From positions 1 to 4,668 of the IMG/VR virus record IMGVR_UViG_3300012155_000088: DNA of 4,668 nt, one strand, 5' to 3'. The stretch is from a virus (lineage: Duplodnaviria > Heunggongvirae > Uroviricota > Caudoviricetes). The position numbers and the translations under genes are program-made. This document shows, piece by piece, positions 1-1,574 of this stretch (within the stretch, counting starts at the first letter, position 1; each line of letters starts with the position of its first letter). The notes beneath the pieces were generated by a model, which saw only the letters and a list, made by a program, of their open reading frames with translations, was not told where the DNA came from and did no database searches.

Positions 1-100
1 ACCCATCTTTACGCATTTGATCTGGAACAGGTTTAACAGCGGATTATCAGGTCATTAAGCAAATATAACGCCCTGAGAATTTCGACAGGCAAAAGAAAAA

Positions 101-123
101 GGGGTTAGCATTTAGCTAACCCC
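101..123 (-). terminator. Rho-independent terminator hairpin (9-bp stem GGGGTTAGC/GCTAACCCC, 5-nt loop) immediately 3' of the tRNA fragment; possibly bidirectional
   Basis: Seen in sequence: perfect 9-bp inverted repeat at 101-109 and 115-123. On the minus strand it is followed by TTTTTCTTTT (complement of 91-100); on the plus strand by TTATCTTATTT (124-134). It lies about 10 nt downstream of the tRNA CCA end. Terminator function is inferred from this structure. Confidence 0.55.
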
Positions 124-133
124 TTATCTTATT

Positions 134-193
134 TGGCGGAAGCGCAGAGATTCGAACTCTGGAACCCTTTCGAGTCGCCGGTTTTCAAGACCG
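134..193 (-). tRNA. serT: Partial tRNA-Ser(UGA): 3' 60 nt only (anticodon stem-loop, long variable arm, T arm, acceptor 3' strand, CCA); 5' half absent; likely att core copy at the element boundary
   Basis: Reverse complement of 134-193 reads CGGTCTTGAAAACCGGCGACTCGAAAGGGTTCCAGAGTTCGAATCTCTGCGCTTCCGCCA. It contains an anticodon loop CTTGAAA (anticodon UGA), a long class-II variable arm, a T-loop GTTCGAATC and a terminal CCA. From memory it matches the 3' part of E. coli serT with about one mismatch. Sequence beyond 193 (AAGAAAAATAAAG...) cannot form the D arm or acceptor 5' strand, so the gene is truncated. Confidence 0.8.
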
Positions 194-334
194 AAGAAAA
201 ATAAAGAAAAATCAGTGCAATACGCAAAATAGCTGAAAAGTTAATCAGACTTAACACCAAGAAAAATCAAGATATTAGGGAGCTATTCAGAGTTAATATA
301 CCAAGTCTTTTTGCCAGAAAATTTTCTGGATTGC
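194..334. promoter_or_regulatory. Putative att arm between the core and int: A-rich, with three direct copies of AAGAAAAAT and an IHF-consensus-like site
   Basis: Seen in sequence: AAGAAAAAT at 194-202, 204-212 and 259-267, the last two extended to AAGAAAAATCA. AATCAAGATATTA at 265-277 fits the IHF core consensus WATCAANNNNTTR. The region contains no ORF and sits where lambda-type arm sites would be. Int or IHF binding is inference only. Confidence 0.4.
314..329. repeat. Perfect 16-bp palindrome CCAGAAAATTTTCTGG, 5 bp downstream of the int stop codon
   Basis: Seen in sequence: the 16-mer equals its own reverse complement. It is not followed by a T-tract on either strand, so it is not a canonical intrinsic terminator. 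It may be a protein-binding site or an RNA hairpin at the int 3' end. Confidence 0.5.
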
Positions 335-1354
335 CTACTTACTGACCACAAGCGGCAAATCCAGTGTTGGGGTGATTTTGGTTTTACGATCGTAAATCAA
401 CACCTGATTTTCTGTTTTGTGTCCACTGAAAATTTGTTTGTCGCGACTGCTGCCTTCGTAATCTGAAATCCCTTTGGCTTTTATGTCATGGAAGTTGCAC
501 CCAAACGGAACGCCGGCTTTTTGCTCGGCTGCACGTTTAGCCTGATTCCACCAGTTGTTCAGCGTCTTGGCTATTACCTTCCCGCCTTTGGTTGTGTTGA
601 TCACATACTCGCATGTGCCGGAAGATACATTTCGGGCTAACTGGATCGCCGTACGTAATCGCGGAGACCATTCCTTGATTTGTTTAGTGCCGGTCTTGTT
701 TTGCTCAATGTAAATCCCTTTATCCATAATATCCTGCCATTTCAGCTCGAGTACATCACCGAGCCTTGCCGCACAAAGATAGGATATCTCCATTGCAATA
801 CGTAACTGTGGAATTGCTTCCGCATATATTGCAGCATACTGTTCATCGGTGATGTAAACAGTACGGGCTTTAAGTGTGAATTTTCTGACTCCTTTGCATG
901 GATTATTTTTCACATACCCACGCTCATATCCCCATCCGTATACACGGCTCAGACTTGCCAGTTCATGGTTTGCCTGGGTCTTGCTCTCAAGTCCTCGCTT
1001 ATCCATGAAAATTCTTACCTGTTCAATTTTTACATTATCAGCAAGCACTTTTCCGAATACTGCCAACAATACCCTTTGATGTTGCCGATAATCTTTTTGG
1101 GTTCGGGGGGCCAGTTCTGTAAATGCAGGGGAGTCCATAAACATGTGCCATAATTTAGCGACGGTCATTATGTTGTGGAGTTTTGCTTTTTCCAGCTCAT
1201 AATTTTGCCAGACTTTAGCTACGCTGGTTTCCCGCACTCTTCCGAGCCCTATAGTTCTTGTGCTTCCTTCGGGTTTCCATACGTAACTGTAACCATTCGA
1301 TCTAACACGCGGTGGTAGTGCATTATCTTTTTTGTTTTTTCTTGGTCTTCCCAT
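335..1354 (-). CDS. int: Tyrosine-type site-specific integrase, phage lambda Int family (339 aa)
   Basis: The N-terminus MGRPRKNKKDNALPPRVRSNGYSYVWKPEGSTRTIGLGRV parallels the lambda Int arm-binding domain (MGRRRSHERRDLPPNLYIRNNGYYCYRDPRTGKEFGLGRD, from memory). The catalytic-domain blocks AARLGDV (Arg I), YIEQNKTG (Lys), FHDIK (His), FSGHK (His II) and LIYDRK (Tyr nucleophile) are in lambda-like order. RBS GAGG sits 9 nt upstream of the ATG at 1354. The gene lies next to the tRNA-derived att site. Confidence 0.95.
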   Translation of the reverse strand: MGRPRKNKKDNALPPRVRSNGYSYVWKPEGSTRTIGLGRVRETSVAKVWQNYELEKAKLHNIMTVAKLWHMFMDSPAFTELAPRTQKDYRQHQRVLLAVFGKVLADNVKIEQVRIFMDKRGLESKTQANHELASLSRVYGWGYERGYVKNNPCKGVRKFTLKARTVYITDEQYAAIYAEAIPQLRIAMEISYLCAARLGDVLELKWQDIMDKGIYIEQNKTGTKQIKEWSPRLRTAIQLARNVSSGTCEYVINTTKGGKVIAKTLNNWWNQAKRAAEQKAGVPFGCNFHDIKAKGISDYEGSSRDKQIFSGHKTENQVLIYDRKTKITPTLDLPLVVSK

Positions 1355-1574
1355 TGTTCAGCGCCTCAAAATCGGGTTCAGCGGAAACCAGTTCAGGTGC
1401 TTTTGGCATCGTAGTCAGTCCGTGTGGAATATCCCTGCGAAGAACTATTGGTTCGTTTTTAGGACCGATTACAAATGGGATACCGTGCAGCCTTAACTGG
1501 TGTTGCTGTTTTGTGTATCGCTCGTATTTCGTGATCTCTTGAATCTCTGCTGGCGATAGAGTTAATTCGTACAT
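1323..1574 (-). CDS. xis: Excisionase (lambda Xis-like, 83 aa); its 3' end overlaps the int start by 32 nt
   Basis: Small basic protein immediately upstream of int and overlapping it, as in lambda xis-int. The N-terminus MYELTL resembles lambda Xis MYLTLQEW and the basic tail NNGKTKKKQKR resembles lambda RIRNGKKAKS (from memory). Only a weak AAGG lies about 12 nt upstream of the ATG. Confidence 0.8.
   Translation of the reverse strand: MYELTLSPAEIQEITKYERYTKQQHQLRLHGIPFVIGPKNEPIVLRRDIPHGLTTMPKAPELVSAEPDFEALNNGKTKKKQKR

Follow-up and report, generated by a model that had tools for sequence, protein, structure and literature searches.

Genomic context of the integrase-proximal prophage end

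By its sequence matches, the DNA analysed here, a stretch of 4,668 bp referred to as the window, is the int-proximal end of a prophage that occupies serT in E. coli. Its closest matches were E. coli chromosomes, in which the window is found between yccA and the prophage, and the nearest genome was NZ_CP098183 (99.6% identity). The locus order is yccA-serT-hyaA in the host and yccA, serT remnant, int and xis at the prophage end, and about 740 of 5,426 complete genomes carry an int module of at least 95% similarity next to serT. Genes for EspV, EspK and EspF-repeat effectors adjoin attR in these prophages.

On the host side of attL lies the intrinsic terminator of serT (99–125, minus strand), a stem-loop followed by a T-run that is identical to the K-12 attB flank. 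Positions 133–193 (minus strand) are a displaced piece of tRNA-Ser(UGA), comprising its 3' part with the anticodon loop at one end and CCA at the other, as delimited by alignment with K-12 serT, three attR copies and the attP of phage Evi. The same segment constitutes the identity block common to attB, attP, attL and attR (the att core block), which extends by a single base into the anticodon stem on its 5' strand and in the window carries a private SNP, A165. ARAGORN detected no intact tRNA in the window, the tRNA piece being recognised by alignment instead, and Rfam returned no RNA family in the window.

Positions 193–334 are phage DNA between the core and int, i.e. the int-proximal arm of attL. 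With the tRNA remnant at 133–193, the end of int at 335 and no credible ORF in 193–334, this agrees with the original prediction of a non-coding arm between the att core and int. A perfect palindrome, CCAGAAAATTTTCTGG (312–327), was found by repeat search between the arm site described below and the int stop codon; it was considered as an int terminator, a role unsupported by the terminator scan, and is partly variable in relatives.

The integrase and the xis-like gene

The int gene (335–1354, minus strand) encodes a 339-aa tyrosine integrase of the lambda type (PF00589) with a predicted N-terminal arm-binding domain. Residues 1–318 aligned with residues 1–339 of lambda Int (1z1b; phmmer, E = 7.5e-18), and the lambda Int structures 1z1b, 5j0n and 1z1g were all matched from residue 1. 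The MGRxR, LPP, NGY and GLGR motifs of lambda Int are conserved in the N-domain. The homology of the arm-binding domain rests on the phmmer alignment, as the corresponding Pfam model gave no score on the Int N-terminus. Judged by this alignment, Int is a full-length homologue of lambda Int and predicted to be heterobivalent.

Overlapping the int start is a xis-like gene (1323–1574, minus strand) of the DUF4224 family (PF13986; phrog_1266 ‘excisionase’, E = 6.5e-23), which provides a predicted recombination directionality factor (Xis) beside int. Beyond it, the domain search identified a protein of 823 aa that has an Rv2179c-like exonuclease domain at its C-terminus.

Repeats and an IHF consensus in the arm

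The arm had been proposed to hold three direct copies of AAGAAAAAT serving as arm-type Int sites, together with a perfect IHF site. The sequence features themselves proved accurate: exact copies of AAGAAAAAT are present at 194–202, 204–212 and 259–267 (plus strand), two of which extend to AAGAAAAATCA (204–214 and 259–269), and AATCAAGATATTA at 265–277 is the sole perfect match to WATCAANNNNTTR in the window. No further copy of AAGAAAAAT was found on either strand of the 4668-bp window. In whole-window dinucleotide shuffles, 0.20 copies of the 9-mer were expected and at least three copies were reached in 0 of 200. The arm is 44% A, and when 193–334 was shuffled by itself some 9-mer attained at least three copies in 1.25% of 20,000 shuffles. 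A perfect IHF consensus on either strand arose in 2.6% of the arm shuffles and in 54 of 200 whole-window shuffles. The repeats are thus real and modestly non-random, and neither feature is compelling alone.

Location of the crossover

The region of strand exchange was placed using a secondary insertion, in which the same int module is integrated inside a prophage gene in E. coli O103 RM8385 and in an IMG contig (L070). The secondary target, GCCGTTTGGTAGTCCGGTGG, mimics the serT anticodon stem-loop, and at the junction host sequence gives way to phage sequence between positions 187 and 190 of the window. This indicates recombination at the anticodon loop (183–189, TTTCAAG on the plus strand), 5 bp from the first AAGAAAAAT copy, and we infer that the 7-bp loop is the overlap region. 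attP and attB are identical from the anticodon loop as far as the tRNA 3' end, and the crossover falls at the loop, as in phages that target anticodon loops. Integrases have reportedly been classified by tRNA sublocation (Williams, 2002), with crossover in the anticodon loop as one of the classes. As is typical of anticodon-loop integration, the phage copy restores the tRNA and the other junction keeps the displaced 3' remnant; beyond this class, the phage has its own terminator copy with an embedded IHF consensus.

A candidate arm-type site present in both arms

Comparisons with a free-phage attP (phage Evi), with the far prophage end and with eight related phages point to (T)ATACCAAG as the probable arm-type site, with a single copy in the window arm and a tandem of three in the far arm. 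The window copy, TATACCAAG at 297–305 (plus strand), is a distal, direct, P1-like candidate at offset +104/+105; it is the repeat that behaves as arm-type and was missing from the arm sites originally listed. Offsets are given from the anticodon-stem edge, which is position 193 in the window.

Phage Evi (LR597642) is 96.7% identical to the window over int and xis, and its uninterrupted attP joins both arms. To the left of the tRNA fragment Evi carries its own copy of the terminator and, further out, ATACCAATTGGTATACCAAGTTTATACCAAG, which consists of three tandem (T)ATACCAA(G/T) units with 12- and 11-bp spacing (Evi L001, 2427–2459; also found in attR, L098). In the repeat analysis of the attP, the top direct-repeat family was TATACCAAGT, with four copies: a tandem of three in the far arm, and a fourth at the equivalent of window position 297. 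An 8-mer with at least two far-arm copies and at least one near-arm copy was obtained in 78 of 20,000 shuffles.

The triple repeat was also found at attR, beside an intact serT, in strain 139, an O111:H11 strain, NCCP 13905 and NZ_CP098183. The DNA beyond the triple differs across the five phage flanks compared (Evi/strain 139, the O111 strain, NCCP 13905 and NZ_CP098183), and similarity starts at most 5–25 nt outside the first copy. On the window side, we aligned 14 distinct versions of the arm, taken from IMG/VR contigs, E. albertii and Evi. TATACCA was invariant in all 14, its flanks changed, and the sole change within the 9-mer was A-to-G at 304 in two variants. A repeat that stands in both arms away from the crossover, as expected of an arm-type site, is therefore seen for TATACCAAG and not for AAGAAAAAT, which is found in one arm only.

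A direct near-copy of the arm motif with one mismatch, ACACCAAG (254–261, plus strand; +61), overlaps the third AAGAAAAAT copy. Close variants do not preserve it (CCTCTAG, ACACCTAG), relatives show no equivalent at +61, and its status as a site is doubtful. No inverted, P2-like copy of TATACCAAG was detected within two mismatches at or near +40 of the window, where 233–240 reads CTGAAAAG.

Comparison with related phages

Searching sequenced phages with tblastn, relatives of Int were found in Citrobacter phage Chris1 (59% identity), E. coli phages vB_EcoM-606R7 (55%) and BUCT708 (54%), Klebsiella phage KpF5 and Salmonella phage ST64B (both 50%, serU), Pectobacterium phage ZF40 (46%), and mEp390 and Fostie (both 42%), with HK022-type Ints at 27%. 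Like the window, Chris1, 606R7, BUCT708, KpF5, ST64B, ZF40, mEp390 and Fostie target tRNA anticodon loops, in serT, serU or a Leu-type tRNA. The offset scan covered the six relatives with a complete attP, giving seven attPs in all. A Kluyvera int remnant, the only hit besides E. albertii in a contig scan using Int, has the orientation of the relatives and was uninformative; most IMG/VR loci end at the int stop codon, and two 76–78% relatives (L083 and L085) were left out of the comparison as other genes lie between int and att.

A common plan was found in the attPs of this family. In order from the int stop codon, there are tandem direct 8–10-mers, usually three (two to four), at about -138, -125 and -114, followed near -76 by a minus-oriented IHF-like site and then by the antisense 3' half of the tRNA. 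In the other arm, one IHF-like site (+17 to +19) precedes an inverted copy of the same 8-mer at +40 to +42, and a second IHF-like site stands at +70 to +74, with a direct distal copy of the phage's own motif at +103 to +106 in five of the six relatives scanned. This distal site is degenerate in BUCT708 and Fostie. The inverted +40 site lies within one mismatch of the motif in five relatives, and in Chris1 only at two.

The six relatives with a complete attP each have an 8–9-mer of their own, mostly at the same offsets. The candidate arm motif is TATACCAAG in Chris1, ATTCCAAG in 606R7, ATTCTAAG in BUCT708, TTTTCTCA in KpF5 and ST64B, ATGGCGAA in mEp390, TATTATGAA in Fostie and ATATTAGGAA in ZF40. 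The motif tracks the N-terminal sequence of Int: Chris1 and the window share LPPRV..N.YSYVWKP, and the Int N-termini of KpF5 and ST64B are near-identical, sharing MPKGVFFRPSGYYWKPGG. Recurrence of a motif within a phage combined with its change between phages is the signature expected of arm-type sites, and on these alignments TATACCAAG would fit it. In the literature searched we found neither mapped arm sites for the attPs of these relatives nor a description of arm sites, or of TATACCAAG, in serT/serU phages of the family, an absence that proves little; the ST64B paper that was found concerns a different integrase (IntA).

The match of the window to the family plan is incomplete, as the relatives keep the inverted +40 site whereas the window has no recognisable P2-like site. 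Furthermore, the attP of the window and Evi is inverted relative to int, whereas all relatives have int beside the triple-repeat arm and convergent with the tRNA.

IHF-like sites

The perfect IHF match of the original prediction, AATCAAGATATTA (265–277, plus strand), is H1-like and lies at offset +72. All seven divergent attPs have an IHF-like match with 0–1 mismatch and the same polarity at 70–74 bp from the edge of the core, with a chance expectation of 0.010–0.025 per phage in shuffles; as the relatives are of common descent, such positional conservation is not wholly independent evidence. A second, H2-like site, AATCAGTGCAATA (210–222, plus strand; +17), differs from WATCARNNNNTTR by one mismatch (AT for TT), and IHF-like sites with 0–1 mismatch were found at +17 to +19 in six of the seven attPs (chance 0.004–0.014 per phage).

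Among the 14 arm variants, changes in the +72 site were confined to the R and N4 positions (GATA, GCTA, GATG, GCTG, GGTA), and in the +17 site AATCAR and ATAC were invariant with variation in N4. The WATCAR half of the +72 site is core-proximal, as in H1, H2 and H' of lambda. In the far arm, an IHF consensus match at -75 is embedded in the phage's own terminator copy. Candidate IHF sites thus stand between the core and the putative arm-type sites on both sides (+17, +72 and -75), and the site at 265–277 looks real on this comparative evidence.

Nature of the AAGAAAAAT repeats

The first two copies of AAGAAAAAT (194–212, plus strand) form two A5 tracts phased 10 bp apart. They are located between the crossover and the IHF-like core at +17, with offsets of +1 (to +9) and +11 from the core edge. 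With copy 1 lying 5 bp from the anticodon-loop crossover, a core-type half-site is expected there, not an arm-type one, and this copy probably overlaps the phage-side core-type Int half-site. Copy 2 would supply the 5' flank and first bases of the H2-like site, which is among the least secure parts of our reading. Copy 3 (259–267, plus strand) is seen in the repeat families to consist of the first three bases of the H1-like IHF site and the A-rich sequence on its 5' side. The extended repeat AAGAAAAATCA lies within a 19-nt unit, present as AAGAAAAATCAGTATAATA and AAGAAAAATCAAGATATTA (repeat family D2), which are 84% identical and 55 bp apart, and this pair of units corresponds to the two IHF-like sites plus their A-rich 5' flanks. 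The 11-mer thus recurs because two similar IHF-like sites, spaced by 55 bp, each include it as their ‘A-tract + WATCA’ half.

In close variants the three units lose their likeness to one another. Among the 14 arm versions copy 1 changes to AAGAAAAAC, ATGAAAAAT or ATGAAAAAC; copy 2 changes to AATAAAAAT in seven, or to AAGGAAAAT; and copy 3 changes to TAGAAAAAT, where AGAAAAATCA is invariant in all 14 and the first base varies. In copies 1 and 2 only the A-tracts and AAAAATCA are invariant, and the units drift independently.

An assignment of the three copies as binding sites of the Int N-domain in a P'-like arm is hard to reconcile with this drift and is in our view very improbable. Three exact direct copies with two of them 10 bp apart, like P'1 and P'2 of lambda, and the int-proximal position of the arm, which P' also has in lambda, speak in its favour. 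Yet the other att arm, where the same 9–11-mer was to be sought, has no exact copy of AAGAAAAAT in either Evi or the closest genome. The nearest sequence is CCGAATAAAAATA, a 12/13 match at the outer edge of the Evi far arm, which falls outside the block conserved in other prophage backgrounds. Homologous elements likewise contain no AAGAAAAAT repeats in any of the eight relatives (Chris1, 606R7, BUCT708, KpF5, ST64B, ZF40, mEp390 and Fostie), including Chris1, which uses TATACCAAG. The resemblance of AAGAAAAAT to the reverse complement of the ST64B/KpF5 arm motif (one mismatch) could be counted for the assignment, but was judged coincidental as positions and orientation differ. In lambda, a site for a bending protein always separates the arm-type sites from the core (PMC4880445), whereas copies 1 and 2, at +1 and +11 and 5 bp from the loop, have no such site between them and the core. 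In addition, TATACCAAG is a far better candidate, with copies in both arms.

The tandem copies at 194–212, and perhaps copy 3, could instead bind the DUF4224 excisionase or another accessory factor, in the manner of X1 and X2 in lambda. Head-to-tail direct repeats one helical turn apart would suit this, as would the correspondence of the arm to the P arm of lambda, the home of the Xis sites (X1/X2 direct repeats), and the missing P2-like site suggests that excision may be organised differently. The xis-like protein of the window/Evi phage group is only 19–28% identical to those of relatives (a mis-framed Chris1 entry being left out), so the absence of the motif from relatives is no evidence against such a role, and Xis similarity was dropped as a test of it as the proteins are too divergent. 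However, 194–212 lies right beside the crossover and shares bases with the H2-like IHF core, and among variants whose Int is 97–100% identical, copy 2 varies freely at its G and copy 1 at its final T. A literature search on DUF4224 binding sites found nothing, and we regard binding by the excisionase or another accessory factor as unlikely.

A third possibility is that AAGAAAAAT has no sequence-specific role and arose by chance or slippage in an A-rich spacer under selection only for composition or bendability. The frequency of triplicated 9-mers in the arm-only shuffles, the invariance of the A-tracts alone among variants and the AT-rich but unrelated sequences of relatives at +1 to +17 are all compatible with a spacer of this kind. 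On the other hand, the 19-nt, 84% identical unit coincides with the two IHF-like sites and thereby ties copies 2 and 3 to functional elements. The spacer explanation overlaps our preferred reading rather than excluding it, and as a full account of the repeats we consider it possible, though on the improbable side.

Our preferred reading is that AAGAAAAAT is not an arm-type Int site but A-tract or IHF-flank sequence; this designation is the least secure part of it, as A-tracts upstream of the IHF-like cores are generally missing in relatives, which counts against it.

Comparison with lambda attP

The attP of lambda has a P arm with the order P1-H1-P2-X1/X1.5/X2/F-H2 and a P' arm with the order H'-P'1-P'2-P'3, on which Int, IHF and Xis act. 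When scanned with the same script as the family, lambda attP returned P1 as direct, P2 as inverted and P'1–3 as direct, as in the family, and all three IHF sites had WATCAR nearest the core with the same polarity as in the family. Shared with lambda are the family's five arm-type positions (a direct tandem of three, a proximal inverted site and a distal direct one) and three IHF-type sites, as well as a xis gene that overlaps int and an int 3' end that abuts att.

The original prediction had likened the window arm to the P' arm of lambda. The likeness to a lambda-type att arm used by a heterobivalent Int was borne out by the alignment of Int from residue 1, but the P' assignment was not, as the H2, H1, P1 layout is that of a P arm. 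A P' arm would have one IHF site followed by three tandem direct sites at about 10–11 bp, an arrangement absent from 193–334; the triple tandem repeat and the H'-like site stand in the far arm instead. By layout, the window arm would be the counterpart of the P arm and the far arm that of P'.

Several features differ from lambda. Instead of C/AAGTCACTAT, the arm motif reads TATACCAAG, and the core is the tRNA anticodon stem-loop with an identity block that reaches the tRNA 3' end. Counted from the overlap centre, the H2-like position is at about +24 and the P2-like position at about +47, leaving no room for Xis/Fis sites between them, and there is instead a 24-bp gap between the P2-like and H1-like positions. 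The tRNA 3' half and the terminator lengthen the triple-repeat arm, whose sites are at about -100 to -130 versus +53 to +83 in lambda. Finally, int adjoins the P-like arm in the window/Evi group, in which no P2-like site is recognisable.

Proposed organisation of the attachment site

The explanation we favour, with a probability of about 0.78, is that 193–334 is a lambda-type attL arm in which TATACCAAG is the arm-type site, 210–222 and 265–277 are IHF-like sites and AAGAAAAAT is not arm-type. In the free phage this int-proximal arm would form one arm of a lambda-type attP, and Int would recombine in or at the anticodon loop (183–189). Outward from the core, the arm would comprise an A-tract spacer with AAGAAAAAT copies 1 and 2, the H2-like site at 210–222, the H1-like site at 265–277 and TATACCAAG at 297–305. 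The partners of this last site would be the three tandem far-arm sites beside the phage-borne tRNA 3' half and the terminator with its H'-like site. By analogy with lambda, bends introduced by IHF may let Int molecules link the core sites with the distal sites of the arms; we infer such bridging, and the binding of Int and IHF at these candidate sites. In mechanism nothing departs from the lambda paradigm, and the locus is an ordinary lambda-style prophage arm.

The annotation of the att site of a very common E. coli prophage is hereby corrected and candidate Int and IHF sites are pinned down, which may be useful for a serT-targeting integration tool or for excision studies of effector-carrying prophages. 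A family blueprint with a different arm motif in each phage could also help to predict the specificity of the Int arm-binding domain.

More speculatively, the family may have a rigid attP of five arm and three IHF positions, set at constant offsets about the crossover in the anticodon loop, in which the arm sequence has been re-specified at least seven times together with the Int N-domain, and the Evi/window lineage may have flipped its attP, lost the P2-like site and adopted another excisive complex. We consider this possible but not likely. If true, the rigid geometry with re-specified motifs would offer a natural data set for the arm-recognition code, and excision in the Evi/window lineage might use the DUF4224 Xis on the phased AAGAAAAAT/A-tract elements or on the near-copy at 254–261.

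Orientation of attP relative to int

Comparison with related phages showed that the attP of the group formed by the window and Evi, a free phage carrying an uninterrupted attP (L001), is inverted relative to int when set against eight related phages (L089–L095 and L100). In the window/Evi group, the arm carrying the H2- and H1-like IHF sites and the P1-like arm-type Int site adjoins int, and int and the tRNA fragment read in the same direction (window 193–1354), whereas in the eight relatives it is the arm with the triple arm-type repeat that adjoins int, and int is convergent with the tRNA.

IHF consensus in the phage-borne terminator and sites in the arms

The phage copy of the serT terminator, as found in Evi (L001 2489–2501), contains a perfect IHF consensus, TAACCCCTTGATT, in minus orientation at offset -75 (offsets are counted from the core edge at window 193). 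The host serT terminator (window 117–129) reads TAACCCCTTATCT and is without the IHF consensus. Chris1, KpF5 and ST64B each carry a site with one mismatch to the consensus at offset -75. Within the displaced 3' remnant of the tRNA-Ser gene, alignment showed an A at window 165 where host serT, Evi and all attR copies (the far prophage ends, with intact serT) have G; this is a private SNP within a non-functional fragment.

An inverted arm-type copy, corresponding to the P2-like site of the family attP plan, was found at +40 to +42 in BUCT708, KpF5, ST64B, mEp390, Fostie and ZF40, and in weak form in Chris1. No such copy was recognisable at the expected +40 in the window (233–240), where the sequence is CTGAAAAG. 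Between the P2-like and H1-like positions, several attPs share a semi-conserved TTT(N)ACAC-like element, located at 251–258 in the window and at approximately +56 to +63 in relatives (TTAACACC in the window, TTTAACAC in BUCT708 and TTTCACAC in KpF5), which could possibly be a site for an accessory protein. The interval separating the TATACCAAG site from the stop codon of int holds a perfect 16 bp palindrome, CCAGAAAATTTTCTGG (window 312–327); this palindrome received no terminator score in the terminator scan, and it is partly variable among close relatives. The 13-mer CCGAA(G/T)AAAAATA is present both at the core edge (window 191–203) and at the outer edge of the Evi far arm (L001 2416–2428), with 12 of 13 positions matching, the latter copy falling outside the block conserved across other prophage backgrounds.

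Insertion outside serT

In E. coli O103 RM8385, the same int module sits inside a prophage gene (DUF1737/DUF6645; loci compared: L070 2655–2792, an IMG contig, L097 2580–2680 and L096 230–330). As the target, GCCGTTTGGTAGTCCGGTGG, mimics the anticodon stem-loop of serT, this insertion probably represents an Int-mediated secondary attachment site.

Related elements and neighbouring genes

BUCT708 (L091 2290–2360) and BUCT709 are labelled as Stenotrophomonas phages; their attPs contain a tRNA-Ser(UGA) fragment that shares approximately 96% identity with serT of E. coli, and their Int and Xis are of enterobacterial type. The Stenotrophomonas host label looks doubtful for both. In Kluyvera georgiana (L008 1500–1932), a truncated remnant of int covers residues 251–336 at 59% identity. 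After it come a terminator, one ATTCCAA-like motif and then serT, in the same orientation as in relatives; this is a degraded element occupying the same tRNA. In several serT prophages, genes or gene fragments for type III effectors (EspV, EspK and an EspF-repeat protein) adjoin attR, in the DNA just beyond the far arm (L003, L004 and L001).
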